IMG/VR virus record: IMGVR_UViG_2617270967_000019
Span: 1 to 19,199 of that record
DNA length: 19,199 bases
Reading direction: 5' to 3' (one strand)
From: a virus
Lineage: Duplodnaviria > Heunggongvirae > Uroviricota > Caudoviricetes
Under the pieces are notes generated by a model. The model saw only the letters and a program-made list of their open reading frames with translations. It was not told the DNA's origin and did not search any database. Positions within the stretch are counted from its first letter, which is position 1. Each line of letters starts with the position of its first letter. This document shows, one piece after another, positions 1 through 16,093 of this stretch. Both the position numbers and the translations under genes were made by a program.

Positions 1-399
1 TCACTTCAGCGGGTAGTCATCAAACTCACCAGTCCGCGCGTCATTGATGATGTACGTCACCACCCCCTTCACTACGACTCGTTCCTCACAATCGTCGTCA
101 GTTATCCATGTCTTTTTATCAGCGTGGTCCAGTTCTTCCAGGTGCACCTTTGGCAGCAGCCTGAGACGCAACAGCCGTATCTGGTCATTCAGATGACAAA
201 TCACCAGGCTTCCGTCTACCGGAGTCAGCGATGTGTCCATGACCAGCAGAGCACCTCTCTTGATTCCTTCCCGCCATGATGTAGCAGCGTAACGGATGAA
301 GAATGTCGCCGCTGGTTTTCGTATCAACTCCTTGTCGAGTGAGATCGCATCCTCGTGGTAATCAGCAGCAGGGCTGGGAAACTGTGACATGGCAACCAT
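1..399 (-). CDS. UmuD'-like protein (LexA/UmuD S24 peptidase fold), N-terminally short
   Basis: 132-aa ORF, ATG at 399-397, stop TGA at 3-1, in-frame stop two codons upstream of the ATG. By-eye alignment to E. coli UmuD: FPSPAADY motif near the N-terminus, then P-AT-F, LLV-D and L-L-P-V-L blocks. It begins about where processed UmuD' begins and lacks the Cys-Gly cleavage site. Ser of the GDSM motif is retained as TSW, but the catalytic Lys position (UmuD VKKL) reads LLRL. Confidence 0.55.
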   Translation of the reverse strand: MVAMSQFPSPAADYHEDAISLDKELIRKPAATFFIRYAATSWREGIKRGALLVMDTSLTPVDGSLVICHLNDQIRLLRLRLLPKVHLEELDHADKKTWITDDDCEERVVVKGVVTYIINDARTGEFDDYPLK

Positions 400-414
400 A
401 ACTCACCTCATTGG

Positions 415-434
415 CACTGTATGTACATACAGTA
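415..434. promoter_or_regulatory. LexA (SOS) box CTGT-N8-ACAG just upstream of the UmuD'-like gene
   Basis: Sequence cactgtatgtacatacagta at 415-434 matches the CTGT-N8-ACAG LexA consensus with an AT-rich spacer, centred about 25 nt upstream of the ATG at 399; it is part of a longer near-palindrome attggcactgt...acagtaccaat. Confidence 0.6.
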
Positions 435-444
435 CCAATGCATG

Positions 445-488
445 GATTTTGATCGTTGCAACCGATCGATTTGAAGATTTTGATCGTT
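445..488. repeat. Two 13-bp direct repeats (GATTTTGATCGTT) with three GATC sites in the divergent intergenic region
   Basis: gattttgatcgtt occurs at 445-457 and 476-488 (31 bp apart, three helical turns). GATC at 451-454, 464-467 (inside the palindrome cgatcg) and 482-485. Confidence 0.6.
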
Positions 489-578
489 ATTTCCCATAAC
501 CAAATAGTGAGCAATTTTGGGACATTTATTATAAATTTAAATTGTCTTTAAATATAAATATCCAATCGGTAAATCATC

Positions 579-1865
579 GTGAAAAATAATTCCGCGCTGT
601 TTGTTGGTTCTTTTTTTGAAAGTGACCAAAGCTCAAAAGTAAACCTGGCATTATCTTATGATGGAGAACGATTCGAAAAAATAAAGGCTCAATTCCTTTG
701 GGCTATTGGTGGAACTGGAGAAGTTTTAGGGAGAGACCCATCAATTATTTATCACAACGGTTGGTGGTTAATAGCCGTATCAGGATATACAGAAAACGTT
801 TATGACGTCGATTGCTGGCGCTCACGTGATTTAACCGTGTGGGAACTGGTACGAATTAAGCTTGGCGATACGCCAGTCTGTGGGAAACGATTACCGGGTT
901 CAGATCTGGTGACCACTGACGTGTGGGCTCCTGAATGGTTTGTTGATGACGAAAATCTGTTCCTGATAGTCAGCCTGCGTTATTACAACGATCAGACTGA
1001 CAGTAAAGGTGTAAATGTCAAAAGTTTTAAAACATTCTATTCTGTCTGTTCTGATGTTGAGAGACTGGAGTTTTACGATCCGGTTGCGGTAAATATCGAA
1101 CCAAAAAACATGATTGATTCTGTTTTTTCCAGAATATTCCAGACGTATTACCTGACAATAAAAGATGAAATCACCAAAAAAATTGAGGTGTATTGTTCAA
1201 ATTGTTTCTCAGGACAGTTCACGAAATTATCAGTAATTCCGTTTACTCAGGCGGCGGAAGGCCCGGCGCTGGTTTATTTGCCGGACGGCACGATCAGAAT
1301 CTATGCGGATTTTTTCGACACAAAAAAATGGACTTATTTTGTAGACACGAAAGACTTCGTGACGTTCACGCCAGAGCGCCCCGTTTTGTTTGACGGCAGA
1401 ATTAAGCGCGGGACTATTACAAATGTGCTGAACTGGCGCGATAGTGAAACCGCATTGCAGCAACTGTCGGCGCTGTTCTGTGCAAACTCCGGGGATTTAC
1501 AGCCAGGGAAAATCCACAAGCTCATTGATGTAGCGGGAACGAGCAATATCAACGCTACTGATTTAATCTGGTGGCCTGAAACTGGACATTGTTATTTCAC
1601 CGAGGGGTTATCCGGTAACGTGACAATCAATGCGCTGCCAACTGTTTACCCGGACGGGAGTTCGTTTTATCTGATGGTCCGAAGCGCAACGCCGGGAGCT
1701 GGTGATCTGACGCTTAAACAGGCTGTCGGCGACCTGTACCACCCGGCTAATGGCATGGCGATATTTGATGCTGATTTGGTAGTGGCGGCTGGCGGGAACG
1801 CCGCATCACGTCTGTTTAGAATGGTGTGCTTTGATGGCCAGTTGTGGGTTGAGGGGGTTTTCTGA
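579..1865 (+). CDS. Hypothetical protein, possible five-bladed beta-propeller glycoside hydrolase (GH43-like)
   Basis: 428-aa ORF, AT-rich. The only in-frame start after the upstream stop is GTG at 579, with a weak RBS. Motifs resembling the GH43 catalytic triad context: GRDPSIIYHNGWW (about residue 50), DVWAPEWF (about 117), AEGPALVYLPDG (about 227). No signal peptide seen. Function is a low-confidence guess. Confidence 0.45.
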   Translation: MKNNSALFVGSFFESDQSSKVNLALSYDGERFEKIKAQFLWAIGGTGEVLGRDPSIIYHNGWWLIAVSGYTENVYDVDCWRSRDLTVWELVRIKLGDTPVCGKRLPGSDLVTTDVWAPEWFVDDENLFLIVSLRYYNDQTDSKGVNVKSFKTFYSVCSDVERLEFYDPVAVNIEPKNMIDSVFSRIFQTYYLTIKDEITKKIEVYCSNCFSGQFTKLSVIPFTQAAEGPALVYLPDGTIRIYADFFDTKKWTYFVDTKDFVTFTPERPVLFDGRIKRGTITNVLNWRDSETALQQLSALFCANSGDLQPGKIHKLIDVAGTSNINATDLIWWPETGHCYFTEGLSGNVTINALPTVYPDGSSFYLMVRSATPGAGDLTLKQAVGDLYHPANGMAIFDADLVVAAGGNAASRLFRMVCFDGQLWVEGVF

Positions 1866-1899
1866 TATAATTGTGGCTCAATGAAAATTGGGCCACATA

Positions 1900-2961
1900 A
1901 TGAACAATAAAATATTTTCCGTCCAGTATCTTCGTGGAATAGCAGCGCTACTTGTGGTGCTGTACCATTTTTCTTTTTTTACTCCGCGCTGGTTTGCTAA
2001 TTTATTTGCAAATGGCATGGTGGGCGTTGATATTTTTTTCATTATCTCTGGATTTATTATTTATTGGTCAACAATAAATCCTGAGGAATGCAGACCAACG
2101 GTATTTATTGTTAAACGATTCGCCAGAATATACCCGCTATTTTTTGTTGTGTTACTGGTTTCGTTGTTATTGCAACCTGCGCCTGCCACACAATTATCCA
2201 GGGGTTTTCTGGTTCTGCACAACGATTACACACTACCCGCTCCGGCGTTTGGATTTAATCTGCTACCGCCCGCGTGGACATTGACTTATGAAATATCGTT
2301 CTACGCTATTTTCTGTATGTGCGCTGCAATAACGACCCGGTATCGAGGTTCATTGTGTATCGCGCTGCTGATTGCAATCCCGGCAGTGCTACAGGTTGCG
2401 TTTAATGGAGGGTTGTCGTTTAACAGCACAGTCACCGCTATCCCTCCTGCTGACTCGCCGTTTTATGGTCTAATCAGGCTGGCAGGCTCAACGATGTTTT
2501 ATGAGTTTGCGTTTGGGATTATGTCTGGAATGATATTTGAAAGGTTTAAATTAATTCTTCCTAACTTAACTGCTATTACTATAGCAATATTCGCATCGGC
2601 TTTATTTTTCTATTTTTTCTTCACATTCTCAGACCATACCAGCGGTATAGAAGGAATGTTCTTTTTTGCTGCAATATTTTTTGTGGGCGTTTTGATGCTG
2701 GATAAATCAAAGGCGGGAGAGATAAAAGCATTATCAATTCTTGGCGACCTGACATATAGCATTTATCTCTGTCATTGGCTGGTAATGCAGATGGTACAGA
2801 AATTTATTCCGATTGGGGAGTATAAGCACTGGGGCGTCCTTGTCCCCTGCATGCTTGTTGCTTCTCTGATGATGGCATTCGCAGCTAACCGGATAATTGA
2901 AAAACCGTTTATCCGTCTGGCCCGTTCGGCGCTGAAACGCCAGGAGATTACGACGCGGTAG
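1900..2961 (+). CDS. Acyltransferase-3 family integral membrane O-acyltransferase (OafA/Oac-like)
   Basis: Begins MNNKIFSVQYLRGIAALLVVLYHF, a typical acyltransferase-3 N-terminus, followed by multiple hydrophobic segments. ATG at 1900; the ORF track start at 1888 is TTG. Sits 22-35 bp after the upstream gene, suggesting an operon. AT-rich. Confidence 0.65.
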   Translation: MNNKIFSVQYLRGIAALLVVLYHFSFFTPRWFANLFANGMVGVDIFFIISGFIIYWSTINPEECRPTVFIVKRFARIYPLFFVVLLVSLLLQPAPATQLSRGFLVLHNDYTLPAPAFGFNLLPPAWTLTYEISFYAIFCMCAAITTRYRGSLCIALLIAIPAVLQVAFNGGLSFNSTVTAIPPADSPFYGLIRLAGSTMFYEFAFGIMSGMIFERFKLILPNLTAITIAIFASALFFYFFFTFSDHTSGIEGMFFFAAIFFVGVLMLDKSKAGEIKALSILGDLTYSIYLCHWLVMQMVQKFIPIGEYKHWGVLVPCMLVASLMMAFAANRIIEKPFIRLARSALKRQEITTR

Positions 2962-3412
2962 CAGGACGTGGCGGCCATTCAAGGCTGTCACTTAATATCG
3001 CTGCTTCATCATTAAACTTCATTTTCTTCAAGGCATCGATATGAGAAAGCCACTCTTTAAAGGTCGCCTTCTCTTCATCGGTGATGATCTCCAGAATGAG
3101 CTTAGAAGGCCAGTGTTCGCTGCTTATATATGCGTTAGCCGCAGAGATTAACGCATCTCTCTTTGACTCGGCCTGTGCCAGTTTAAGCGCGAACAGTTCT
3201 TCTTTAGTTGGCTCGGGAATTTTTTCCCACGCAGGCATGCCGTCTGGCCCTGCAACCCTTCGCATGCCGTCTTTAACTGTTGGGTAAAATTCGGCGAAAA
3301 CACCCATATCAACCGGCACAGCATCACTGTATTCGTCCGTCTTTAACAGAGAGCTTTCCTTGAAAACAAAAGCGTTGCTTTTGGCACTATATAAAAAATC
3401 TGAATCAGACAT
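2948..3412 (-). CDS. tfa: Tail fibre assembly protein (Tfa-like chaperone)
   Basis: 154-aa ORF; C-terminal region ...KATFKEWLSHIDALKK...SLEWPPRP resembles the conserved tail of tail-fibre-assembly proteins (lambda Tfa, Mu U). Its ATG overlaps the stop of the upstream fibre-like ORF (TAATG at 3410-3414). Confidence 0.5.
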   Translation of the reverse strand: MSDSDFLYSAKSNAFVFKESSLLKTDEYSDAVPVDMGVFAEFYPTVKDGMRRVAGPDGMPAWEKIPEPTKEELFALKLAQAESKRDALISAANAYISSEHWPSKLILEIITDEEKATFKEWLSHIDALKKMKFNDEAAILSDSLEWPPRPATAS

Positions 3413-3847
3413 TACGCTCTCCCGATAGCAATCCAGTTAAAAACTGTTGGCTGCGCAGTAAAGTTGTGGTCGGACGAACTCCAGGTTGCAGAACGAACAT
3501 TAAAGCTCCCTGCGTTAACCTTTTCGGCACCATACACGGTTAAGAGTTGATAGATACCGCCGGAGGCTGTCCATCCAGAGACATGGCCTTCTACTGCAAA
3601 TACCTGGTATGAGCTCATCGCCACACCCATATTCACATTATAAAATCCGTTACTGTCCGTTGTACCTACATCCATCTGGATGATCATATTGCCAGGAAGG
3701 CGAATAACCACACCAGACCCGGTTGTTGTATAGGTAAAGGATGACATATCCGGAACTTGCCCGGTAGCCGGTATAAATCACACACTCTCCGACATACACA
3801 TCATCCGGATGGGCAAACAGCTCTTGTTTGTCTGTGAGCTCTGCCAT
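3412..3847 (-). pseudogene. Tail-fibre-like (receptor-binding region) remnant split over two reading frames
   Basis: Two overlapping minus-strand ORFs in different frames (3650-3847, 65 aa, ATG with a GGAG RBS; 3412-3747, 111 aa, Gly/Ser/Thr-rich). The second frame is open from 3777. Position immediately upstream of tfa suggests a truncated or frameshifted fibre gene. Confidence 0.35.
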
Positions 3848-4204
3848 TGTTGGCTCCGTTTATCCGTTAAAAGGGATATCAGTTAAGTTATCCCGTGCAG
3901 GGTATAAGCCATTGTCGAGACCACTCATTGAATGGCCTCTGCAATAACCGATGTCTTTCCATCAGTCCGCCACAACAAAGAATCTTTTTTGCCATAAGGC
4001 AGGAGGTTCATCTTTCAGTGGCTGCCAGTGTTATTTCCCCACTTACTGGCTTGGGTTGTTTCGTGGTACTGCCGTAACTGGTTGCCAAGAATAAATTCCG
4101 GTTTCATTATCAAGCCCACCCGTAGATGGGCTTTGTAATGGATAGCCGTTGCTCAGTTCTCGTAATGCTTTGATTTTTCCGATAACGCAGTTTTGCGTTT
4201 GCCA

Positions 4205-4726
4205 TCAGCACGCGATATCGAGAGTCAACTGCAGTTGCTCGCGCCAGTACTCAACATTTGCTTCAATAACCGGCTTATCCCATCGCCAGCGAGCCATCTC
4301 TCTTGCCCCATTGCTGGCTTTTGATTTCCGGTCATCGCGAATGCGACATGCTTGCTCATATTTCTGCTGCTCAGTCAGTTCACCGCGAAGCAGACTATCA
4401 ATGTGCAGGTCGCACCACACAGCAAAACGAGCATCACACCAACGGGCAAATGCAACTGAAAGTTTTGGATGTAGCCACGTACCACCACCCCTGTCCTTTC
4501 GTGCCTTGCTGGTTTTTACATACCTCGATTGTGAGGGATGTAAAATTTGAGATTCTTTCCCGGTCAACGCTTCGTCTAAAGCACGAACGTATTCAAGCGT
4601 TTCTGCCAAACGCATCCAGTTATCAATGCGTTTTCCAAATCTCTCAGCAACACCTGTGACGTTGATCCAACCATCAGTGTTGAAACTGACAATTTCACCT
4701 TTGTAATTAAGTGGCACGATATTCAT
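4205..4726 (-). CDS. KilA-N domain protein
   Basis: 173 aa; N-terminus MNIVPLNYKGEIVSFNTDGWINVTGVAERFGKRIDNWMRLAETLEY and the later WLHPKLSVAFARWCDARFAVW block match the KilA-N (APSES-like) DNA-binding domain pattern. Confidence 0.55.
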   Translation of the reverse strand: MNIVPLNYKGEIVSFNTDGWINVTGVAERFGKRIDNWMRLAETLEYVRALDEALTGKESQILHPSQSRYVKTSKARKDRGGGTWLHPKLSVAFARWCDARFAVWCDLHIDSLLRGELTEQQKYEQACRIRDDRKSKASNGAREMARWRWDKPVIEANVEYWREQLQLTLDIAC

Positions 4727-4927: not shown

Positions 4928-5386
4928 TTATTTCAGGCATTGCGTCCTGATGTATTCCTGCAGGTAGTTAACCTGCGCGGTTATCTTGTCGATTCCACTT
5001 CGGAGACGGTAATAATTGAGTTCAGCATCTGCTGTAAGTCTTGGGCTTTCTCCATCGCCCATGCTGCTGGCTCCGGTCGTTGACTTTGCACAGGTGGCGG
5101 CGACTTGCAGGCGCTTACGACCAGCAGAAACATCAGCACGGAGACTTTCGATAGTCGCGTTAGCATCAGCAAGCTCCTTTGTATATCTGGCATCGAGTTC
5201 TGCTACATCACGTTGACGCTTCCGCATGTCAGCGATGGTGGCGTTCGCCTTCTCCAGTTCACTGGCCTTGTTATCGCGCTGCTCTTTGTAGGCGATTGCG
5301 TTATCACGGTAATGATTGACCGCCCACGACAGGCAGACGATGATGCAGATAACCAGAGCGGAGATAATCGCGGTTAACCGACTCAT
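4928..5386 (-). CDS. Rz: Rz i-spanin
   Basis: Starts [31 protein letters not shown], recognised as lambda Rz family (N-terminal TMD then coiled-coil periplasmic domain). The ORF track extends the frame upstream to 5515 but the RBS-preceded ATG is at 5386. Confidence 0.85.
4981..5166 (-). CDS. Rz1: Rz1 o-spanin lipoprotein, embedded in Rz in the +1 frame
   Basis: Embedded ORF; signal plus lipobox [20 protein letters not shown] followed by a Pro-rich segment [16 protein letters not shown], as in lambda Rz1. Confidence 0.75.
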
Positions 5387-5474
5387 GACATCAACACCCC
5401 AACGGCCAGAAACCACGGCCACGCATCGTTGCCATTCAATGCGAGCAACGCTGCCATGAAAAAGCAAATCATGC

Positions 5475-5978
5475 TCATTGTTGCCCCCACAAACAGACTT
5501 CACGCTCAATCTCACGACGGGTCATCAGCCCTTTCCATTGCTTACCGCCAGCGTATGTCCAGCGCCGTAGCTGATCACATGCGCCCTTGATATCGCCCTG
5601 GTTTATTTTGCGAAGAAGCGTCGATGTTCTGAAATTGCCTGTGCCCACGTTATAGACGAACGAGTAAAGAGCGCCGCGCGTTGTTTCCGGTATATCGACT
5701 TTGATGTACGGGTTAATTTGTCTGGCGACCGTGGCAAGGTCTTTATTCAGGAGGGCTTTGCATTCTGCTTCGGTATACGTTTTACCGAGCATGATGTCTT
5801 TTCCGGTGTGTCCGTGGCATACAGTCCATACACCAACAATATCTTTGTATGGTATGTAGCTGACACCTTCCAGACCATCGTTACCACTCGGTCCAGTGAT
5901 TAACACAGATGCTATAGCAATAGCCCCGCCACTTATCGCCGCTATTACGCTATTTCGTAGTGCCGGTGACATTGCCAT
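5475..5978 (-). CDS. R: SAR (signal-anchor-release) endolysin, phage-21 R-like lysozyme
   Basis: 167 aa; N-terminal Gly/Ala-rich SAR domain [19 protein letters not shown], then a catalytic region recognised as the phage 21 / DLP12 R21 family ([27 protein letters not shown]...). GAGGA RBS upstream of the ATG at 5978. Confidence 0.85.
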
Positions 5979-6153
5979 TCAATCTGTCCTCGCGCTCTTT
6001 GCGCTTGTAGTACCAGTTGATGCCAAATGTGCCGACAGTACAAAGAATACCAATGATGACAGCCCAGTCATTCAGGGAGAGAATGCCACCCATCGCAGTC
6101 AGTCCTCCGAAGCTGTAACTGAACCATTCTCTGATTTTGTCCATACGGTACAT
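5950..6153 (-). CDS. Holin with dual-start (antiholin/holin) motif, two TMDs, possible pinholin
   Basis: 67 aa; MYRMDK with ATGs at 6153 and 6144 (Met-Tyr-Arg-Met dual-start). Two hydrophobic segments ([13 protein letters not shown], weakly hydrophobic and Gly-rich; [20 protein letters not shown]) and a charged C-tail. Upstream inverted repeat cccctcaatgaagggg precedes the starts. 3' end overlaps the endolysin start. Not lambda S and not the S21/EssD sequence as I recall them. Confidence 0.7.
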
Positions 6154-6397
6154 GCTCTACCCCTTCATTGAGGGGATTTGCTCTATTTAATTAGGAATAA
6201 GGTCGATTACTGATAGAACAAATCCAGGCTAGTGTGTTTAGTAATCAGATTTGTTCGTGACCGATATGCACGGGCAAAACGGCAGGAGGTTGTTAGCGCA
6301 ACTTCTTGCCACCCGCTTTCACGAAGGTCATGTGTAGAAGGCCGCAGCGTAACTATCACTGATGAATTCAGGACAGCCAGTGGCTACGGCTCAGTTA

Positions 6398-6473
6398 TGG
6401 TGCTGGTTAACGGACTTGAACCGCTACCCATTCGCTTACAAGGCGACTGCTCTACCATTGGAGCTAAACCAGC
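6398..6473 (-). tRNA. tRNA, anticodon UGU (Thr) by manual folding
   Basis: Minus-strand 76-nt cloverleaf GCTGGTT-TA-GCTC-CAATGGTA-GAGC-A-GTCGC-CTTGTAA-GCGAA-TGGGT-AGCGG-TTCAAGT-CCGTT-AACCAGC-A-CCA. Perfect 7-bp acceptor stem, 4-bp D stem with GG in the loop, T loop TTCAAGT, encoded CCA; one mismatch at the top of the anticodon stem. Confidence 0.6.
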
Positions 6474-6478
6474 ATATT

Positions 6479-6552
6479 TGGCGGGACAGCGTGGACTCGA
6501 ACCACGATAAGAAGGTTAACAGCCTTCCGTAATGACCTTATACGACTGACCC
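6479..6552 (-). tRNA. tRNA-like, anticodon GUU (Asn-type), atypical D-arm (possible pseudo-tRNA)
   Basis: Minus-strand GGGTCAG-T-CGTA-TAAGGTCAT-TACG-GAAGG-CTGTTAA-CCTTC-TTAT-CGTGG-TTCGAGT-CCACG-CTGTCCC-G-CCA (74 nt). Anticodon loop and T loop match E. coli tRNA-Asn; one acceptor mismatch and short junctions around the D arm. Confidence 0.45.
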
Positions 6553-6745
6553 AAATAAAAAATCCCGAAACCGTTATGCAGGCTCTAACTATTACCTGCG
6601 AACTGTTTCGGGATTGCATTTTACAGACCTCTCAGCCTGCGATGGTTGGAGTTCCAGACGATACGTCGAAGTGACCAACTAGGCGGAATCGGTAGTAAGC
6701 GCCGCCTCTTTTTATCTCACTACCACAACGAGCGAATTAACCCAT
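6553..6745 (-). ncRNA. pR'-initiated short late leader RNA (lambda 6S RNA equivalent) ending at tR'
   Basis: Minus-strand sequence from ATGGGTTAATTCGCTCGTTGTGGTAGTGAG... to the hairpin CCCGAAAC...GTTTCGGG plus ATTTTTTAT, recognised as the lambda pR'-tR' transcript. TSS placement is approximate. Confidence 0.6.
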
Positions 6746-6790
6746 CGTTGGGTCAAATTTACCCAACTTTATTCAAAAAGTCAATATCAT
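6746..6790 (-). promoter_or_regulatory. Late promoter pR' with Q-utilisation (qut) site
   Basis: Minus strand TTGACT (6784-6779), about 17-bp spacer, TAAATT (6761-6756), immediately downstream of Q; matches the lambda pR' arrangement. Confidence 0.6.
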
Positions 6791-6826
6791 GCCGTTAATA
6801 TGTTGCCATCCGTGGCAATCATGCTG

Positions 6827-7450
6827 CTAACGTGTGACCGCATTCAAGATATTGTCTGCGATTGACTCTTCCTTGTGGCATTGCACCACCAGAGCGTCAT
6901 ACAGCGGCTTAACAGTGCGTGACCAGGTGGGTTGAGTAAGGTTTGGGATTAGCATCGTTACAGCGCGATATGCGGCGCTTGCTGGAATCCTTGAATAGCC
7001 GACACCTTTGCATCTTCCGCACTCTTTCTCAACAACTCTCCCCCACTGCTCTGTTTTTGCTATATCAACCGCGCGGCCTGTACCGTGGCAATCTCTGCAT
7101 CTTGCCCCCGGCGTCGCGGCACTACGGCAATAATCCGCATAAGCGAATGTTGCGAGCACTTGCAGCACCTTTGCCTTAGTATTTCCTTCGAGCTTTGCCA
7201 CACCACGGTATTTCCCCGATACCTTGTGTGCAAATTGCATCAGATAGTTGATAGCCTTTTGTTTGTCGTTCTGGCTGAGTTCATGCTTACCGCAGAATGC
7301 AGCCATTCCGAATCCGGCTTGTGATTGCGCCATCCCCATAGCAGCCATCACATCAGTACCGGAAAGAGAGTCAGAAGCCGTGGCCCGTGGTGAGTCGCTC
7401 ATCATCGGGCTTTTTGGCGAATGAAATTTAGCTACGCTTTCGAGTCTCAT
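6827..7450 (-). CDS. Q: Late antiterminator Q (lambda-type)
   Basis: 207-aa translation MRLESVAKFHSPKSPMMSDSPRATASDSLSG... recognised as lambda Q over its full length. Confidence 0.95.
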   Translation of the reverse strand: MRLESVAKFHSPKSPMMSDSPRATASDSLSGTDVMAAMGMAQSQAGFGMAAFCGKHELSQNDKQKAINYLMQFAHKVSGKYRGVAKLEGNTKAKVLQVLATFAYADYCRSAATPGARCRDCHGTGRAVDIAKTEQWGRVVEKECGRCKGVGYSRIPASAAYRAVTMLIPNLTQPTWSRTVKPLYDALVVQCHKEESIADNILNAVTR

Positions 7451-7637
7451 CGTCTTCCCCCCTCTTGCCCTGTTTGACCATCAGGACGCCGTTAACTATT
7501 ACGTGACGCTCGCCTTTTCTGTCTCGGTTGTACTTGAGCACTGTTCCTCTTGCGCAGGAAAGCATCCTCGCCACTTCGGTCTGATTGCCTCGTGCCTGTA
7601 TAAGCAGTTCTGGTATCGTTTGAATTGTGGCGTTCAT
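7428..7637 (-). CDS. ninH: NinH-like small HTH protein
   Basis: 69 aa; ...TIPELLIQARGNQTEVARMLSCARGTVLKYNRD... resembles lambda NinH as I recall it. Overlaps the Q start by 23 nt. Confidence 0.6.
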   Translation of the reverse strand: MNATIQTIPELLIQARGNQTEVARMLSCARGTVLKYNRDRKGERHVIVNGVLMVKQGKRGEDDETRKRS

Positions 7638-7996
7638 ACGTTCTCCAGTTCGGTGATTTTTATTCCAAGCCGTCCGCCTGGTACTTTCACACCACGAATT
7701 ACGCGAATGTCATCGAATTGCTCGTCGTCTTCCGCAAATCCGGCGTGGATAAGGGAGTCGAGTAAACCTTTCAGGATGTTATCGAGGTCGCGGCGGCGGG
7801 AGTCTGGAACGTCTGCGATGACTTTGATGCGGAGTCGTGATTTGGTGAAAATGTCTAACTTAAGTTGGCGGATGATTTGCTGAACGTCTTTTCGGTATTT
7901 CTGGCCTTTATCGCTGATGTAGTATTGGCTTCCTCGTCTTCGCCAGTAGGTATTCACCGACGGCGGGTATGGAAGCACAAACTGATATTCGTTCAT
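7634..7996 (-). CDS. rusA: RusA-family Holliday junction resolvase
   Basis: 120 aa; matches the RusA pattern (LPYPPSVNTYWRRRG..., DRRRRDLDN..., GGRLGIKITE) of E. coli DLP12 RusA. Confidence 0.85.
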   Translation of the reverse strand: MNEYQFVLPYPPSVNTYWRRRGSQYYISDKGQKYRKDVQQIIRQLKLDIFTKSRLRIKVIADVPDSRRRDLDNILKGLLDSLIHAGFAEDDEQFDDIRVIRGVKVPGGRLGIKITELENV

Positions 7997-8283
7997 GGCT
8001 TAATCTTTCCCTCCTTCAGCAGTATCGCCTGCGTCCTGATCACGCCTTCGAGGTGGTAAAGTCTGGCGTCTTTGTTGTCGAGGTTATGGGTGCGTCGGTC
8101 GATTTCATCGTGACACGCGCTACAAGCCCATGCACCGATCAGGTCGTCAGGCTTCATTCCCGCTCCGCAAATTCCAGCCATCCGGTAATGTGCCAGAACT
8201 GTAGTTTCAGGATTGCCATTGCATATGCCGTAAATACGTACCTGGCATTCTCTGCCGCGCGCTTCTTTGCGTAGGTTAGCCAT
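7993..8283 (-). CDS. YbcO-like (DUF1364) Cys-rich putative nuclease
   Basis: 96 aa; RGRECQVRIYGICNGNPETTVLAHYR...ACSACHDEIDRR resembles E. coli DLP12 YbcO. ATGA start/stop overlap with rusA. Confidence 0.6.
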   Translation of the reverse strand: MANLRKEARGRECQVRIYGICNGNPETTVLAHYRMAGICGAGMKPDDLIGAWACSACHDEIDRRTHNLDNKDARLYHLEGVIRTQAILLKEGKIKP

Positions 8284-8552
8284 TATGGTTCACTCCAGTA
8301 ATTCTCAATTGCAGCAGCCATTCTCTGCATCCACTCAGCCAGCTTTAACGCGGCTTCTCTTTCAGAACCACATTTAGGGAAATCCTTCATTTCCATGCTG
8401 GCCTTATATGTTCTGAATGCCAGGTCTCCGGTAATAATCAGCTCCTGATCAAGCACCGAGCGTTTATTCCGGTGTTGAACGTAATAGACAGATTCAGTCC
8501 GCATTTCTTCTCTGTCTTTTTTGAAGGAAATAAGCTCAGAGAAATCACTCAT
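8283..8552 (-). CDS. Hypothetical nin-region protein
   Basis: 89-aa ORF, ATG at 8552 overlapping the upstream gene stop, stop overlapping the ybcO-like start; no family recognised. Confidence 0.45.
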   Translation of the reverse strand: MSDFSELISFKKDREEMRTESVYYVQHRNKRSVLDQELIITGDLAFRTYKASMEMKDFPKCGSEREAALKLAEWMQRMAAAIENYWSEP

Positions 8553-8721
8553 CGTCTTCTTCCTCGTACATTGAGCTATTCGGATCGCTCATCAGTTCTG
8601 CGCAGCAGTGCTCACACACGTGAACTTCCAGCACATGCAGCTTCTGACCGCAGTTAGCGCACGTTAATACCCGCTCGACGCTTTCTTTCAGGTATTGAAG
8701 GGATTGAGATGGGCTAAGCAT
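8545..8721 (-). CDS. NinF-like small Cys-rich (zinc-ribbon-like) protein
   Basis: 58 aa (below the ORF-track cutoff), [58 protein letters not shown]; C-x2-C ... C-x2-C-C arrangement with an acidic tail. Start and stop overlap neighbours. Confidence 0.5.
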
Positions 8722-9055
8722 TATTGGCCTCCTGCATCAGGAGAAAGACAATCATGGCGGCGCGGAGAGGTCTGGTATCAAATATTGGGCTTACGCCTTT
8801 TGCATCCACACACCATTCAGTTAACTGGTCTAAGATAGAAATCCTGTATTTCTCAATAATCGGCCATGAAGCGCTCGGATCATTGCAGTAGTCAGGCAAA
8901 TGATTTAATGGCTCAAAAGTTGTATAAGCATTTCCGTAATACCATTTGTTGGTGTTATTCCCTGATGTTTCCGGTTTACTTGCCCAAAGGCCTTTAAAAA
9001 TTATGTCTCCTACCATTCTGTTAATTTCAAAATCACTTAACTGTGAATAATCCAT
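8714..9055 (-). CDS. Hypothetical nin-region protein (possibly NinX/DUF2591-like)
   Basis: 113 aa from the ATG at 9055, which has GAGG 8 nt upstream; the ORF track extends to 9097. Family assignment is a weak recollection only. Confidence 0.45.
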
Positions 9056-9081
9056 TGTCATTTCCTCGCACGATATCTTAG

Positions 9082-9234
9082 CTACCGGATATCCCACAGG
9101 TGAGCTGTGTAATTGAAGGTTTTTACGTCAGATTCTTTTGGGATTGGCTTGCGTTTATTTCTGGAGCGTTTCGTTGGAAGGTATTTGCAGTTTTCGCAGA
9201 TGATGTCGGTGAAACTTCGTCGCTGTCGCCTCAT
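9082..9234 (-). CDS. Small basic nin-region protein (NinD/NinE-like)
   Basis: 50 aa from the ATG at 9234 ([50 protein letters not shown]); ATGA overlap with the upstream methylase stop. Confidence 0.5.
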
Positions 9235-9759
9235 GCCGCCCTCCTGACGCCCTGCCCGATCGCCATCAATGCCGCTTTGGATACGGTAGTAAACATCCGT
9301 CGAGGACTGATGAACGGTCGCCAAATCAGCAGCATGGAGCCTTTGCTGTTTCCCTTCTTCTCCAGCCCTGTCGATGGTTCGATAAAATTAATCCGTCCAT
9401 CAGTGATAATGCGAACTTCGTCGACACTCTCCAGAGCCTTGCTGAACCATCCGACTGACATATCCTCTGGCACAAGCATAACTACCGTCTGTCGCTGTTG
9501 TATGCACTGCTCAGCGGCTTTTTCCACCCACGGCCTGATATTGCTGTACGGTGGGTTATTCCAGATTGCACCGTGGCTTATCCACTCAGAATTTAGCGCG
9601 TCGTCGGCCTCAGTTAACCAGTGAGCGCACAGAGCATTTTTTGTCGCTCGCTGCCGAATCCAGCCAGAATCCAAACTCAATATCCAGTGCATCAAAAAGC
9701 CAAAGCGGCGTTTGCCAGCAGTCCTTGTCGTGTGCTGGCGTATTTGATTTGATAGTCAT
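9231..9759 (-). pseudogene. Phage Dam-type DNA N6-adenine methyltransferase, split by a frameshift at a 6-nt homopolymer
   Basis: N-terminal frame (ATG 9759, ...CWQTPLWLFDALDIEFGFWLDSAASDKK) stops at 9610; C-terminal frame (9231-9695) carries IWNNPPYSN, the (D/N)PPY motif. The frames switch at the T6 run at 9637-9642 (A6 in the coding sense); one fewer A would give a continuous protein of about 175 aa. ATGA overlap with ninB. Confidence 0.6.
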
Positions 9760-10196
9760 GCAGCCCGATCTCCCCATCGCGCTTTCCATTCGAGAGCCAG
9801 TCGCGCTTCGTCTGACCACTTAACGCCACGCTCTGTACCGAATGCCTGTATAAGCTCTAATAGCTCCGCAAATTCGTTTACACGCATCCTGCTGGTTGAC
9901 TGGCCTATTACCACAAAGCCATTCCCGGCAAGGTTAGGAACAACATCCTGCTGCTTTAATGCTGCGGTAAACACACACTTCCAGCTTTCTGCATCCAGCC
10001 AGCGACCATGCCATTCAACCTGACGAGAGACGTCACCAAGGCAAGCCCAAAGCTTTCGATTCTGGTCTAAGCTGCGGTTGCGTTCCTGAATGGTTACTAC
10101 GATTGGTTTGGTTGGGTCTGGAAGAATTTGCTGTACCGCGTGAATAGCGTTTTGCTGATGTGCTGGAGATCGAATTTCAAAGGTTAGTTTTTTCAT
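9756..10196 (-). CDS. ninB: NinB (Orf) recombination mediator
   Basis: 146 aa from MKKLTFEIRSPAHQQNAIHAVQQILPDPTKPIVVTIQERNRSLDQNRKLWACLGDV..., recognised as lambda NinB. Confidence 0.9.
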   Translation of the reverse strand: MKKLTFEIRSPAHQQNAIHAVQQILPDPTKPIVVTIQERNRSLDQNRKLWACLGDVSRQVEWHGRWLDAESWKCVFTAALKQQDVVPNLAGNGFVVIGQSTSRMRVNEFAELLELIQAFGTERGVKWSDEARLALEWKARWGDRAA

Positions 10197-10211
10197 GACT
10201 TCCCTCTCCCC

Positions 10212-10244
10212 CAAATAAAAAGGCCTGCGATTACCAGCAGGCCT
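10212..10244 (-). terminator. Rho-independent terminator between ren and ninB (lambda tR2 position)
   Basis: Minus strand AGGCCTGC-TGGTAATC-GCAGGCCT (8-bp stem) followed by TTTTTATTT. Confidence 0.5.
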
Positions 10245-10269
10245 GTTATTAGCTCAGTGATGTAGATGG

Positions 10270-10560
10270 TCATCTTTTAACTCCATATACTGCCAATACC
10301 CGTTTCATCGCGGCACTCTGGCGACACTCCTTAAAAATCAGGTTCGTGCTCATCTTTCCTTCCCGTTCTTCCCTGGTAGCAAATCGGTAATACACCGTTC
10401 GCCAGACCTTACCTTCGATAACCAGAAGACCTGCCCGTGCCATTTTAGCCGCGGCCTGATTTATGCTGGTTACTGTTGCGCCTGTTAGCGCGGCAACGTC
10501 CGGCGCACAGAAGCTATTATGCGTCCCCAGGTAATGAATAATTGCCTCTTTGCCCGTCAT
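10270..10560 (-). CDS. ren: Ren (Rex exclusion resistance) protein
   Basis: 96 aa, MTGKEAIIHYLGTHNSFCAPDVAALTGATVTSINQAAAKMARAGLLVIEGK..., recognised as lambda Ren. Confidence 0.9.
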   Translation of the reverse strand: MTGKEAIIHYLGTHNSFCAPDVAALTGATVTSINQAAAKMARAGLLVIEGKVWRTVYYRFATREEREGKMSTNLIFKECRQSAAMKRVLAVYGVKR

Positions 10561-11258
10561 ACACTTGCTCCTTTCAGTCCGAACTTAGCTTTGATTTCTG
10601 CGATCTTCGCCAGAGCCTGTGCACGATTTAGAGGTCTACCGCCCATGACAGGAAGTTGTTTTACTGGTTCAGGGATCGCCTCACCACGGTTAATTCTCGC
10701 AGTCATATGGACAAGCTCATCTGCGGCCTTACGGCGTAATTCCGCATCAGTAAGCGCATTGGCCCGCATGTTCTGATACAGGTTGGTAACCAGCCAGTAG
10801 TGCGCGTTTGATTTCCACGGATAAGACTCCGCATCCGGATACAGGCCTCGCTTCCGGCAATACTCGTAAACCATATCAACCAGCTCGCTGACGTTTGGCA
10901 GTCCGGCGGTAACGGATGCTTCTTCCCGGCACCATGCAACAAACTGCCCGGGTGATGGCAGAAATGGTCGATTCTGCCGACGGGCTACGCGCATTCCTGC
11001 GTTAACCTGTTCCATCGTGGTGATCCCGTTTTCCCGAAAAGCCAGAACCCACTGGCGACGGATTTCGTTCACTTCGTTCTGGTCACGGTTAGCCAGGCTC
11101 GCCGGGAAAGTTGCCAGTAACTGGCTGAACACACCGTTGATGATCTGCGCTACCTGCTGTACCTGCGGCTTTTCGTCGTACTGTTCCGGCATGTTGTTGG
11201 CGATCCGACGCATCTGCTCACGGTCAAAGTTAACCATCTGTGCGGCGATGTTTTTCAT
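10557..11258 (-). CDS. P: Replication protein P (DnaB helicase loader)
   Basis: 233 aa, MKNIAAQMVNFDREQMRRIANNMPEQYDEKPQVQQVAQIINGVFSQ..., recognised as lambda P. Confidence 0.95.
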   Translation of the reverse strand: MKNIAAQMVNFDREQMRRIANNMPEQYDEKPQVQQVAQIINGVFSQLLATFPASLANRDQNEVNEIRRQWVLAFRENGITTMEQVNAGMRVARRQNRPFLPSPGQFVAWCREEASVTAGLPNVSELVDMVYEYCRKRGLYPDAESYPWKSNAHYWLVTNLYQNMRANALTDAELRRKAADELVHMTARINRGEAIPEPVKQLPVMGGRPLNRAQALAKIAEIKAKFGLKGASV

Positions 11259-12154
11259 AGATCCACCCCGTAAATCCAGTCTGTGTTTGTCAGGTCGAGT
11301 TTTGGTTTGCTGGCTGTCATGCCTGCCTGTTGCTTGTTACGGTTGATTTCGAGTTGGGTCCACTTATCGCGGAGTTTGGCCGGGCTCAGCACGTTACCGG
11401 ACCAGAAGTTGTCCTGGCATGCCCAGCGGAACAGCACGCACATGTCACGGTGGTTACGTCCGTCACGTTCACGCATCAGGCGGATATCGTTAGCCCACCC
11501 AGCAAAATTCGGTTTTCTGGCTGATGGTGCGATAGTCTTCACCATGTCAAACATCCACTCTGCGGCGGTCAGGTCTTCTGCTGTCCCCCACTTGCTGCCG
11601 CTCTGAATTGCAGCATCCGGTTTCACCACAGAAAGGTCGTTTTCTGGCTGGTCAGAGGATTCGCCAGAATTCTCTGACGAATAATCTTTTCTTTTTTCTT
11701 TTGTAATAGTGTCTTTTGTGTCCCCCTGTTTTGAGGGATAGCAATCCCCCAATTTGAGGGATGTTTTATCCCTCGTTTTAGGGGATTTTCCCTCGTTTTG
11801 AGGGATGCACCATTCTGAGATGTTTTTATTTGGTCCAAACATGCCGCCTTGCTGCTTGATAATATTCATTCTGACGAGTTCTAACTTGGCTTCATTGCAC
11901 CGTTTGACGGGTAACTTTGTAATCTCGCTAAGTTGAGAATCGGTGATTCTGTCCATTGGTTTATTCCACCCATAGGTTTTACGCAGAATGGCAAGCAGCA
12001 CTTTAAACTGTCGCTTGGTCAGATCTGCGCCCGAATAAGCCTCAAGCAGCATATTTGATAGTCTGGCGTAACCATCATCGAGATCTGCCACATTACGCTC
12101 CTGTCCGGCAAAGTTACCTCTGCCGAAGTTGAGTATTTTTGCTGTATTTGTCAT
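11255..12154 (-). CDS. O: Replication initiator O
   Basis: 299 aa, MTNTAKILNFGRGNFAGQERNVADLDDGYARLSNMLLEAYSG..., recognised as lambda O; contains the ori iterons. Confidence 0.95.
   Translation of the reverse strand: MTNTAKILNFGRGNFAGQERNVADLDDGYARLSNMLLEAYSGADLTKRQFKVLLAILRKTYGWNKPMDRITDSQLSEITKLPVKRCNEAKLELVRMNIIKQQGGMFGPNKNISEWCIPQNEGKSPKTRDKTSLKLGDCYPSKQGDTKDTITKEKRKDYSSENSGESSDQPENDLSVVKPDAAIQSGSKWGTAEDLTAAEWMFDMVKTIAPSARKPNFAGWANDIRLMRERDGRNHRDMCVLFRWACQDNFWSGNVLSPAKLRDKWTQLEINRNKQQAGMTASKPKLDLTNTDWIYGVDL
11670..11808. repeat. ori-lambda: four O-binding iterons plus adjacent AT-rich region, inside the O gene
   Basis: Top strand 11721-11806 carries four repeats of the pattern (t)cccc/tc...ttttgaggga (tccccctgttttgaggga, tcccccaatttgaggga, tccctcgttttagggga, tccctcgttttgaggga); AT-rich stretch aatctttcttttttcttttgtaatagtgtc at about 11684-11713. 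Confidence 0.8.
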
Positions 12155-12164
12155 AATGACTCCT

Positions 12165-12241
12165 GTTGATAGATCCAGTAATGACCTCAGAACTCCATCT
12201 GGATTTGTTCAGAACGCTCGGTTGCCGCCGGGCGTTTTTTA
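12165..12241 (+). ncRNA. oop: oop antisense RNA (promoter pO upstream)
   Basis: GTTGATAGATCCAGTAATGACCTCAGAACTCCATCTGGATTTGTTCAGAACGCTCGGTTGCCGCCGGGCGTTTTTTATT recognised as lambda oop RNA ending in a hairpin plus U-tract; candidate -10 CATAAT at 12152-12157 and -35 TTGAGT at 12129-12134. Antisense to the cII 3' end. Confidence 0.7.
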
Positions 12242-12480
12242 TTGGTGAGAATCGCAGCAACTTGTCGCGCCAATCGAGCCATGTCGTCGTCAACGACCCC
12301 CCATTCAAGAACAGCAAGCAGCATTGAGAACTTTGGAATCCAGTCCCTCTTCCACCTGCTGATCTGCGACTTATCAACGCCCACAGCTTCCGCTGTCTTC
12401 TCAGTTCCAAGCATTGCGATTTTGTTAAGCAACGCACTCTCGATTCGTAGAGCCTCGTTGCGTTTGTTTGCACGAACCAT
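12187..12480 (-). CDS. cII: Transcriptional activator CII
   Basis: 97 aa from MVRANKRNEALRIESALLNKIAMLGTEKTAEAVGVDKSQISRWKRDWIPKFSMLLAVLEWGVVDDDMARLARQVAAILTNKKRPAATERSEQIQMEF, recognised as lambda CII; the ORF track extends the frame upstream. Confidence 0.95.
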   Translation of the reverse strand: MVRANKRNEALRIESALLNKIAMLGTEKTAEAVGVDKSQISRWKRDWIPKFSMLLAVLEWGVVDDDMARLARQVAAILTNKKRPAATERSEQIQMEF

Positions 12481-12490
12481 ATGTAAGTAT
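12458..12490 (+). promoter_or_regulatory. pRE (CII-activated promoter) with TTGC-N6-TTGC CII-binding repeats
   Basis: TTGCGTTTGTTTGC at 12458-12471 and candidate -10 AAGTAT at 12485-12490, directed toward cI, overlapping the cII start as in lambda. Confidence 0.6.
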
Positions 12491-12591
12491 TTCCTTAGAT
12501 AACAATTGATTGAATGTATGCAAATAAATGCATACACCATAGGTGTGGTTTAATTTGATGCCCTTTTTCAGGGCTGGGATGTGTAAGAGCG
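12490..12591 (-). promoter_or_regulatory. nutR (boxA and boxB) and tR1 region between cro and cII
   Basis: Minus-strand boxA CGCTCTTA (12591-12584) and boxB hairpin GCCCTGAAAAAGGGC (12574-12560), followed by sequence recognised as the lambda tR1 region. Confidence 0.75.
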
Positions 12592-12599
12592 GGAATGTC

Positions 12600-13955
<1,356 letters not shown>

Positions 13956-14005
13956 TCCCCACCTCAATCTCGATAACCAAAAAACAAACTATTTTCCGTT
14001 TAAAA

Positions 14006-14079: not shown

Positions 14080-14119
14080 TAAACCATCAGCAGGACGCAC
14101 TGACCACCATTGAAGGTGA

Positions 14120-14632: not shown

Positions 14633-14640
14633 GGTACGTA

Positions 14641-15681: not shown

Positions 15682-15699
15682 CTGTGAGGATATGAACAG

Positions 15700-16068: not shown

Positions 16069-16093
16069 GCGCGGCGTTACCGCATACCAATAA

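Follow-up and report, generated by a model that had tools for sequence, protein, structure and literature searches.

A predicted Dam/OxyR operator of the mom/agn43 type beside a GH43-like and acyltransferase-3 gene pair in a defective Escherichia coli prophage

Epigenetic operators that combine Dam sites with OxyR half-sites are known from agn43 (flu), gtr, opvAB and Mu mom, and methylation of the GATCs in such sites blocks OxyR binding and vice versa (PMC2909390). In agn43, three GATCs lie in one OxyR site of two half-sites, a 13-bp GATC pair of the form GATCGxTxxxAxCGATC brackets one half-site, and OxyR represses a single gene whose -10 and 5' UTR the site covers. The prophage-borne gtr genes of Salmonella and P22, which modify O-antigen and lie beside tail genes and att, have 13-bp GATC pairs inside OxyR half-sites, with four GATCs and three half-sites in alternative activating and repressing occupancy; GATC4 of P22 gtr stands at -33 of the promoter (PMC2909390), and family-2 GtrC carries out phase-variable O-antigen acetylation (PMC5364305). 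The half-sites of opvAB work at 7-8/10 matches and 32-bp spacing (OBSB 8/10, OBSD 7/10; PMC4856963). In phage BTP1, a prophage acetyltransferase shields the lysogen O-antigen from the prophage tailspike hydrolase and from superinfection (PMC4413052).

The locus described here is the tail-fibre end of a defective lambda-like (lambdoid) E. coli prophage, with the host gene dacD just beyond; we analyzed it within a window of 19,199 nt. A LexA box and an OxyR/Dam operator separate a humD-like gene running one way from a GH43-like gene and an acyltransferase-3 (AT3) gene running the other (Table 1). An earlier note on this DNA had read the region as surface-modification cargo behind a Dam-dependent switch. 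Its cargo assignments, operon and operator likeness stand, but its operator class and its view of the enzyme need revision, and the Cronobacter and Mu-like counterparts of the module lack the operator.

Table 1. Features of the control region, cargo genes and adjoining tail genes
Feature	Position	Strand	Details
HumD-family (UmuD'-like, peptidase S24) gene, 132 aa	1-399	-	NCBIfam NF051876, Pfam, PHROG
Presumed LexA (SOS) box CACTGTATGTACATACAGTA (CTGT-N8-ACAG)	415-434		part of 16-nt inverted repeat 409-440
13-bp direct repeats GATTTTGATCGTT	445-457, 476-488		100% identical, start-to-start 31 bp
GATC sites	451-454, 464-467, 482-485		read from the sequence
OxyR-type half-site 1 ATCGTTGCAACCGAT	452-466		flanked by GATC 451-454 and 464-467, 13 bp apart
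OxyR-type half-site 2 ATCGTTATTTCCCAT	483-497		GATC 482-485 at edge
Candidate sigma-70 promoter of cargo operon	480-508	+	TTGATC (480-485), 17-bp spacer, AATAGT (503-508); by eye
Predicted 428-aa anchorless tailspike-type module	579-1865	+	GTG start
Predicted AT3-only membrane O-acyltransferase, 353 aa from ATG	1900-2961	+	PF01757, PHROG 3333
Tail fibre assembly protein (tfa)	2948-3412	-	Pfam Caudo_TAP 2e-14; PHROG 188
Tail-fibre tip remnant, 111 aa	3412-3747	-	weak Gp53-like_C match; PHROG 1396 tail fibre

Architecture and recurrence of the operator

Both GATC-containing repeats reported in the earlier note are exact, and the middle GATC lies between them in the palindrome CGATCG at 463-468. 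Each repeat consists of flanking sequence plus the initial six bases of one OxyR-type half-site, and the search for such half-sites that the note had proposed found two. Half-site 1 matches ATAGxTxxxAxCTAT at 8/10 positions under strict scoring and at 10/10 under relaxed scoring (the GATC-imposed C3 and G13 allowed), and is the sole 10/10-relaxed match in the window; half-site 2 scores 7/10 strict and 8/10 relaxed. Their centres are 31 bp apart, as in Mu mom, the canonical distance being 32 bp. With two half-sites at about 31-32 bp and three GATCs in an 18 + 13 bp register, the 13-bp pair bracketing one half-site, the element is by its architecture a predicted mom/agn43-type Dam/OxyR operator and not a generic GATC cluster.

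The cluster had been compared with the switches of gtr, pap and agn43, and it does closely match experimentally characterised Dam/OxyR operators, its 13-bp GATC pair having the form seen in P22 gtr, agn43 and Mu mom. As a whole it is of the mom/agn43 type. The gtr-type signature (four GATCs in two pairs, with three half-sites A, B and C) is not found, the element having three GATCs and two convincing half-sites. A third half-site sought 31-32 bp to either side of the operator scored 4-5/10; a site at 504 reaches 7/10 but at a distance of 21 bp, and we found it unconvincing. An Lrp/pap-type arrangement was set aside because the GATC context fits OxyR sites and not pap. As Int arm-type sites the repeats are too distant from any att core, lying more than 400 bp from the prophage end by eye.

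The likeness to Mu mom is the closest. GATC register and half-site spacing are identical in the two operators, which share 33/50 ungapped identity including AAATCGATCGGT (the best 50-mer in the window on both strands, against a background of 12.7 +/- 3.1), and mom also lies at the tail-fibre end of its phage genome. The surroundings differ: com/mom lie downstream in Mu, whereas here a humD-like gene occupies one side and the GH43-like and AT3 genes the other, and the locus adds a LexA box and divergent transcription and has no evident C-activator site. With agn43 the element shares its three GATCs in one two-half-site OxyR site and the 13-bp pair of the same form around one half-site, but the agn43 spacing is 19 + 13 (32 bp) rather than 18 + 13 (31 bp), and the element here lies between two divergent genes.

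Within the window, GATC is scarcer than expected (50 sites, versus 76 +/- 8 in shuffles), and three GATCs inside 35 bp are, taken alone, only mildly unusual. The full gtr/agn43-type motif GATCG.T...A.CGATC occurs once, at 451, and in 0/300 dinucleotide shuffles; a half-site with a relaxed 10/10 match anywhere in the 19 kb turned up in 6% of shuffles. In IMG/VR, the strict pattern ACGATC-N11/12-ATCGATCGNTNNNANNGATC recurs at 36 loci, which fall into 10 or more sequence classes. Mu-like com/mom accounts for about 20 of them, and the rest include loci next to genes for a GT25 LPS glycosyltransferase, for an EAL protein, for a lipoprotein and for a membrane protein.

These results bear on whether there is a switch at all. 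The repeats could instead belong to a conventional promoter or operator, for example as duplicated hexamers resembling a TTGATC -35 or as sites for another regulator. The GATCs would then be fully methylated, and methylation or hemimethylation would at most alter promoter strength without being inherited. The related loci give this some appeal: Cronobacter L019 has zero GATC in the matching region, L010 and L023 carry other GATC palindromes resembling a TTGATC -35 for the humD-like gene, and the GATC/TTGAT elements of Cronobacter and L023 are placed like a -35 hexamer, 17 bp before the TACTGT of the humD-like promoter. The modest rarity of three clustered GATCs points the same way, as does the finding that in gtr one base change can abolish phase variation (PMC5364305). 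It also counts against the switch that Mu mom itself is not known to phase-vary (PMC2909390). We nevertheless consider the absence of a switch unlikely, given the shuffles, the register identical to that of a proven OxyR operator, and the exact architecture at 36 phage loci, a recurrence that speaks for an element dedicated to protein binding. A Dam-family methylase encoded by the prophage itself is a weakened candidate for driver of the predicted Dam/OxyR switch, its gene being intact in L004 but frameshifted in the window.

Divergent promoters and the target of the operator

Positions 1-399, which the earlier note had left as background, encode a HumD-family protein (NCBIfam NF051876 HumD equivalog, 171 bits against a cut-off of 120; Pfam Peptidase_S24; PHROG 811 UmuD-like, 2e-40). 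The gene runs divergently from the cargo operon, and both share the control region that holds the operator. We take the site at 415-434 to be a LexA box from the established consensus TACTGT-N8-ACAGTA. Equivalent boxes are present in L019 (TACTGTTTTTATATACAGTA) and L023 (CACTGTTTATATTTACAGTA), and in Cronobacter L019 it is a shorter S24-like gene, with its box, that stands in the place of the humD-like gene. A possible extended -10, TGgTACTGT (437 to 429, - strand), picked out by eye, overlaps the LexA box.

On the other side, the candidate cargo promoter TTGATC-N17-AATAGT scores 8/12, under the 9/12 threshold of our promoter scan, which listed no site in 400-578. It would set GATC3 near -33, the same geometry as GATC4 of P22 gtr. 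The description of the cargo as AT-rich applies only to this intergenic stretch: 400-578 has 31.8% GC, whereas the two cargo genes (45.4% and 42.7%) are close to the remaining window (47.4%).

On sequence, the operator may act on the cargo operon, on humD or on both. One reading accepts a genuine OxyR/Dam site but makes the humD-like gene its main target, under mom-like dual LexA and OxyR/Dam control, with the cargo operon constitutive from its own promoter in the AT-rich 500-578. The operator is nearer the humD-like gene (16 bp to the LexA box and 51 bp to the start) than the GH43-like start (91 bp), and the order from single-GATC half-site to GATC-pair half-site to gene, which leads here to the humD-like side, is that of mom and agn43 and recurs in four out of five further phage operator classes that we examined. 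The E. coli version also has a segment of about 48 bp of additional AT-rich sequence before the GTG that could hold a separate promoter. In L030, however, a GT25 LPS glycosyltransferase gene sits on the single-GATC side at 37 bp, so operator orientation is not fixed; the gtr-like position of GATC3, near -33 of a + strand promoter, also favors the cargo, and an OxyR tetramer over 445-500 would sterically affect both divergent promoters. We regard humD as main target as possible but somewhat unlikely, and proceed with control of the cargo operon.

The cargo genes and their prophage setting

As the earlier note had it, the two + strand genes converge on tfa. They are co-oriented and 34 bp apart, the second overlapping the tfa 3' end by 14 bp, and their arrangement at the end of the prophage suggests an operon. 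E. coli, Cronobacter and a Mu-like phage all have this GH-then-AT3 pair convergent on tfa. Identity to Cronobacter is 97% for tfa, 82% for AT3 and 77% for the GH gene, a step that indicates a mosaic boundary. The remaining structural genes are deleted in the window copy; in intact relatives, baseplate genes come after a fibre of 243 aa. The similarity shared with L004 and L005 ends near 3767. The module is rare: megablast of 400-3000 against 5,426 complete E. coli genomes gave no DNA match, blastn of the same interval found none among phages, and the 428-aa protein was found on about nine contigs. A contig search with protein alignment yielded distant Firmicutes MAG relatives only, and a profile search of a word-indexed protein database gave 10 matches and little gain.

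The reading of the 428-aa protein as GH43-like with D/D/E motifs is borne out. We are confident of a five-bladed GH43/GH159-like beta-propeller (about residues 5-285), the blade number of GH43 and clan GH-F-like propellers, joined through a helix to a beta domain at the C terminus (about 312-428). The PF04616 gathering score is not reached (25.0 bits against a cut-off of 32.2), although relatives including P0008 (45 bits) and P0010 (44 bits) exceed it, so we call the protein GH43-like without a CAZy family. The 22 diverse sequences compared all keep D53 (GRDPS), D180 (IDS) and E227 (EGP), a putative triad that may correspond to the GH43 base, modulator and acid.

Nearly all relatives are long phage tailspike or tail-fibre proteins, and some have signal peptides or TM anchors; since relatives are secreted or anchored, the substrate is probably extracellular. 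The proteins of Serratia fonticola (P0004) and a metagenome (P0005) and the tail fibre of Pantoea phage PdC23 share the propeller and C-terminal domain at 31-47% identity over nearly all 428 aa, with the triad invariant, and thus place the protein among homologues of virion tailspike catalytic/receptor-binding modules; an Ewingella relative is 61% identical. These proteins carry N-terminal anchors (Tail_spike_N, T7 tail, tail-collar) and in some cases a C-terminal S74 chaperone or SGNH esterase, whereas the 428-aa protein has none of them: the alignment begins at residue 5 of 428, and residues 8-15 are already a propeller strand. Its gene lies on the strand opposite tfa, with its own upstream region, outside the structural operon. 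Taken together, the protein is predicted to be an enzyme, a tailspike or fibre catalytic module without a virion anchor, and not an O-antigen biosynthetic enzyme. The absence of a signal peptide, which the earlier note had found unexpected, holds, as does that of any other export signal, but is explained by an anchorless tailspike module.

Could the open reading frame instead be a decaying tail-fibre fragment, or the alternative cassette of an invertible G-segment-like fibre region? Its position convergent with fibre and tfa recalls S'U' in Mu, distal fibre modules are among its homologues, and a hix-like half-site and an HTH_7 remnant adjoin a variant of the locus that has AT3 only. The 13-bp repeat itself resembles a hix/gix half-site at 9/12 by eye, a candidate we rejected. 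Neither L002 nor L019 has flanking inverted repeats, no invertase gene lies nearby, and an in-frame TAA stands three codons 5' of the GTG. The 428-aa length and start are the same in four lineages, and with pN of 0.15-0.19 at saturated pS and a dN/dS of 0.075 (L019 versus L010) the gene is, by these estimates, under strong purifying selection. We judge the fragment or cassette highly improbable and retain the anchorless enzyme.

The second cargo gene, which the open-reading-frame listing begins at TTG 1888, encodes the acyltransferase-3 membrane protein that the earlier note had recognised. PF01757 covers residues 7-328 of 353 (4e-34, 118 bits against a cut-off of 31), PHROG 3333 (O-acetyltransferase) matches at 9e-57, and there are 8-10 hydrophobic segments and no fused SGNH domain. 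AT3-only enzymes have the motifs R/K-X10-H in TMH1, FFXISG and RXXR (PMC7448272), and all three are present as R12-X10-H23, FFIISG 46-51 and RFAR 73-76. The product is thus a predicted Oac-like AT3-only O-acetyltransferase. Oac of Shigella phage Sf6 and other AT3-only enzymes share its length of about 350 aa, its motifs and its site at a prophage end, but outside its own small clade the closest homologues are 43-45% identical, with no close characterised member. Its AT3 architecture is also unlike that of family-2 GtrC.

The pairing of the two genes raises the alternative that the 428-aa protein is intracellular and acts with AT3 in surface-polysaccharide biosynthesis or modification. The genes are closely spaced, co-oriented and syntenic across three host genera, and the missing export signal would suit a cytoplasmic enzyme. 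Against this, relatives are virion tailspikes or fibres, or have signal peptides or TM anchors, and so act outside the cell; AT3-only enzymes like Oac need no such partner (PMC7448272); and at this site a related E. coli phage carries AT3 without the glycosidase, so that the two need not act together. We find an intracellular partnership very unlikely and continue with an extracellular substrate.

A proposed surface-editing switch

We propose a three-gene accessory module in which OxyR and Dam switch the cargo and the cargo edits a surface glycan; to this proposal as a whole we give an even chance. Reduced OxyR would bind the unmethylated operator, shield the three GATCs from Dam and occlude the -35 and spacer of the weak + strand promoter, turning the operon OFF; with the GATCs methylated, OxyR could not bind and the operon would be ON. 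The outcome would be agn43- or mom-like, possibly heritable ON/OFF expression, the repression by OxyR following agn43. The same OxyR complex would overlie the -35 region of the LexA-controlled humD-like promoter, and the humD-like gene may be gated too.

In the ON state, AT3 would O-acetylate the surface polysaccharide of the lysogen and so block both adsorption and cleavage by phages that use that glycan. The anchorless glycosidase, whose location and release we infer, would reach its extracellular substrate only at cell lysis. Once freed, it could act as a depolymerase for the unmodified polysaccharide of debris or non-lysogens, while the acetylated glycan of the lysogen would be protected, as GtrC protects against the BTP1 tailspike. 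The BTP1 hydrolase, however, is an anchored virion tailspike whose gene belongs to the structural operon, and BTP1 gtrC does not phase-vary, whereas the hydrolase predicted here is anchorless and its proposed transcription is joint with the acetyltransferase. In its fullest form, the two products would be a 'weapon plus immunity' pair, a depolymerase released only by phage- or SOS-induced lysis and an AT3 protecting the lysogen, with the mom-type OxyR/Dam operator as their switch and a LexA-controlled HumD mutagenesis gene sharing that operator from the other side. We hold this extended version to be quite unlikely; if true, one 180-bp control region would tie together SOS, DNA methylation state and the editing of receptors.

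Our data are consistent with what may be a rare surface-editing module switched epigenetically. Because the module is so rare (about nine contigs and 0/5,426 complete genomes), it probably makes little difference to E. coli populations as a whole. If the proposal is correct, it would extend the few known Dam/OxyR epigenetic operators, those of agn43, gtr, opvAB and mom, to an E. coli prophage cargo module, and the mom-type operator would be a reusable cassette found beside many phage accessory genes, including those for LPS glycosyltransferase, EAL, lipoprotein and membrane proteins. More generally, the locus suggests a type of prophage gene not described so far, which encodes a free tailspike enzyme without an anchor, is maintained by selection and is paired with an O-acetyltransferase gene. 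The pairing of GH43-like and AT3 proteins bears on serotype conversion, on phage host range, on superinfection immunity and on how lysogens compete with non-lysogens.

A maintained enzyme of the tailspike type

The two plus-strand genes of the earlier note, a 428-aa ORF and an O-acyltransferase-3 (AT3) gene converging on tfa, were recovered as described. The 34-bp gap between them holds no convincing terminator, and the proposal of an operon at the prophage end stood: in contigs encoding an identical 428-aa protein the module occupies that end, in the order yeeX-yeeA-sbmC-dacD, S24 gene (leftward), 428-aa gene and AT3 (rightward), then tfa, a 243-aa fibre gene and baseplate (leftward). Its AT-richness is pronounced in the intergenic region (32% GC) and only slight in the cargo genes (45% and 43% versus 47% in the rest of the window). 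Across positions 1-3000 the E. coli copies differ by a single SNP; strains carrying the element include those with assemblies GCA_049343005.1, GCA_028635825.1 and GCA_049205735.1. The left 3 kb of the window had no DNA match among 5,426 complete E. coli genomes and 50,697 phage records.

Table. Features of the window
Feature	Position	Strand	Remarks
HumD-family gene	1-399	-	UmuD'-like
LexA box	415-434		near-consensus, 16 bp from the operator
Repeat, first copy	445-457		GATTTTGATCGTT
GATC1	451
GATC2	464		within palindrome CGATCG
Repeat, second copy	476-488		GATTTTGATCGTT, 31 bp from the first
Candidate promoter	480-485 / 503-508	+	TTGATC-N17-AATAGT
GATC3	482
428-aa ORF	579-1865	+	GTG start
AT3 ORF	1900-2961	+	353 aa
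tfa	2948-3412	-	convergent with AT3, 14-bp overlap
Deletion	~3747-4205
KilA-N antirepressor-like gene	4205-4726	-
Lambda/434-type early, nin and lysis DNA	5117-19199		reversed orientation
Dam-family gene (PF05869)	9231-9819	-	frameshift near 9650

The structural genes are deleted in the window, with a 111-aa fibre tip as the sole leftover, and resemblance to the related contigs L004 and L005 stops at ~3767. The deletion fuses this tip remnant to the upstream region of the KilA-N antirepressor-like gene. Since the head, tail and terminase genes of relatives L001-L005 are all absent while Q, lysozyme and Rz are retained, the prophage is defective but may still lyse its host.

The 428-aa protein had been called GH43-like with a D/D/E motif. 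Pfam returned GH43 and GH32N below threshold only; the residues themselves (D53, D180, E227) are invariant in the alignment, and an AlphaFold model from 22 sequences (pLDDT 85.4) shows a GH43/GH159-like propeller followed by a helix and, at the C-terminus, a beta domain. A word-indexed search yielded four relatives: one from E. coli, a 78% cluster of Cronobacter turicensis members, a 61% cluster including Ewingella americana WP_459176991.1, and, from Serratia, a 'phage tail protein' of 715 aa. Exhaustive HMMER searching raised this to 316, nearly all 500-1250 aa long with the homologous part internal. Ten among the best of these begin with Tail_spike_N, T7-tail-fibre or tail-collar domains, and some of the ten additionally end in S74 chaperones or an SGNH esterase. 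PHROGs labels the protein 'tail protein', tblastn matched proteins annotated as tail proteins in phages of Pantoea and Propionibacterium, and the top viral structural match, a 667-aa protein, had a TM-score of 0.79 over the query. 

As that note observed, the protein has no signal peptide; its N-terminus is the first propeller strand. That the protein and AT3 form an enzyme pair inside the cell was considered. Some short relatives, however, carry signal peptides or transmembrane anchors, from which we infer that the family works extracellularly. We also weighed whether the ORF is a remnant or part of an invertible cassette, and rejected both: length and start are identical across four lineages, pN lies at 0.15-0.19 while pS is saturated (dN/dS 0.075 in the closest pair), the segment has no inverted repeats at its flanks in L002 or L019, and an in-frame stop precedes the GTG. 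Tail-protein relatives, model, invariant residues, absent signal peptide and purifying-type pN/pS together argue for a maintained, anchorless enzyme of the tailspike type, and against both a remnant and an O-antigen biosynthetic enzyme. One tailspike relative, P0016 (940 aa), joins a T7-type anchor to a GH43-like module and ends in a GDSL/SGNH esterase; this fusion hints that the glycan targets of the family are O-acetylated, which would fit the pairing with an acetyltransferase at this locus.

The acyltransferase and its boundary with tfa

The assignment of the second gene to a membrane acyltransferase was borne out (PF01757, 4e-34; PHROG 3333 'O-acetyltransferase', 9e-57). It encodes an AT3-only protein with 8-10 hydrophobic segments and the motifs R12-X10-H23, FFIISG and RFAR, as defined in PMC7448272. 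Every close relative (72-82% identity) sits at the same position, convergent on tfa, and a GH43-like gene accompanies it in Cronobacter and in a phage with a Mu-type baseplate. In a related E. coli phage, AT3 (72% identity) occupies the same site without the GH43-like gene (L021 6400-7000; L022 244-1227). Traces of a past invertase system may survive upstream of this lone AT3, where a half-site resembling hix (TTTTATCAAAAACAC) is accompanied by a 32-aa HTH_7 remnant and a 31-nt inverted repeat.

Between E. coli and Cronobacter, tfa is 97% identical, AT3 82% and the GH gene 77%; dS is 0.065 for tfa and saturated for the adjoining AT3 and GH genes. The 3' ends of AT3 and tfa overlap convergently by 11-14 bp in every variant (L019 8055-8068 and L010 2498-2508, in the Cronobacter module and a further non-E. 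coli version). The step in identity points to a sharp mosaic recombination boundary at this overlap.

A probable mom-type operator in a divergent control region

The repeats and the three GATCs of the earlier note, the middle one in a palindrome between exact 13-bp copies, are present as described. GATC1 and GATC2 flank ATCGTTGCAACCGAT, giving the form GATCGxTxxxAxCGATC shared by the OxyR half-sites of P22 gtr, agn43 and Mu mom; a second half-site, ATCGTTATTTCCCAT, follows at a distance of 31 bp and begins at GATC3. The whole motif was absent from all 300 of 300 shuffles. On the minus strand the GATC offsets (20/38/51) are exactly those of Mu mom, and with an ungapped identity of 33/50 no 50-mer of the window comes closer to mom (mean 12.7, sd 3.1). 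The proposed likeness to agn43 holds in a register one base longer there (19 + 13); that to gtr extends to half-site form, but the gtr signature comprises four GATCs with three half-sites, which the element lacks. In known systems, methylated GATCs prevent OxyR binding and bound OxyR prevents Dam (PMC2909390), half-sites matching 7-8/10 at 32-bp spacing work (PMC4856963), and O-acetylation can be phase-variable (PMC5364305). We consider it probable that the element is a real OxyR/Dam site.

The same pattern recurs widely. A strict 20-base version of the three-GATC architecture matched 36 IMG/VR loci (L029-L063) belonging to 10 or more sequence classes, against a rough chance expectation below one for a collection taken as ~10^11 bases. 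About 20 of the 36 are Mu-like com/mom; elsewhere the pattern adjoins genes for a 254-aa membrane protein (L036/L037), an EAL-domain protein (L031/L050/L054/L063), a 125-aa lipoprotein (L038/L043), DUF968 (L051) or a divergent GT25 LPS glycosyltransferase (L030). Its recurrence beside such varied genes suggests an epigenetic cassette that phages can reuse for their accessory genes.

Which gene does the operator control here? Divergent from the cargo lies a HumD-family gene (171 bits, cut-off 120) with no UmuC partner. Its LexA box is kept in place in Cronobacter, where a shorter S24-like gene follows, and in the Mu-like variant L023, whose contig ends at the box; the humD-like gene is thus likely a module member rather than background. 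By eye, GATC3 falls at ~-33 of a candidate plus-strand promoter, like gtr GATC4, and half-site one at ~-36 of a candidate minus-strand promoter (TGgTACTGT, inside the LexA box), so both divergent promoters could be open to an OxyR effect. Control of humD alone was considered: in mom, agn43 and four other phage classes the adjacent gene lies on the GATC-pair side, here the humD side, whereas in L030 it lies opposite. That there is no switch whatsoever was also considered. The operator is missing from the homologous modules L019, L010 and L023, where the same position holds 0, 2 and 2 GATCs, respectively, and palindromes (L010 5-33, L019 5555-5582, L023 41-56; for example GAGATCAA-N13-TTGATCTC or GCAGATCAAGATCTGC) replace the OxyR-type site. 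One palindrome arm there fits a TTGAT(C/T) -35 placed 17 bp upstream of the TACTGT of the humD-like promoter; the GATC palindromes of L010 and L023 differ from the window operator and fit a TTGATC -35. Control of the cargo operon by the operator is a tentative proposal, somewhat more doubtful than not, and heritable phase variation of the cargo through such control appears unlikely.

A proposed receptor-editing module

Our working model, which we hold to be evenly balanced, is that a mom/agn43-type OxyR/Dam operator gates a receptor-editing operon, and possibly humD too. The AT3 enzyme would most likely acetylate a surface polysaccharide, and the anchorless 428-aa enzyme would most likely act solely after lysis. 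Acetylation would then shield the lysogen, by analogy with GtrC and the tailspike of BTP1 (PMC4413052). The nin region also carries the Dam-family DNA adenine methyltransferase gene, split by its frameshift in the window and intact in L004 (175 aa); if such a phage enzyme were active, interplay with the GATC operator would be possible once the prophage is induced.

Every component is of a known kind, and the functions assigned to operator, 428-aa enzyme and AT3 are predictions from sequence. Three points are new: the combination as such; a selected yet anchorless tailspike enzyme, probably co-transcribed with an AT3 gene; and a putative mom-type operator that would be employed within a LexA-boxed divergent control region.
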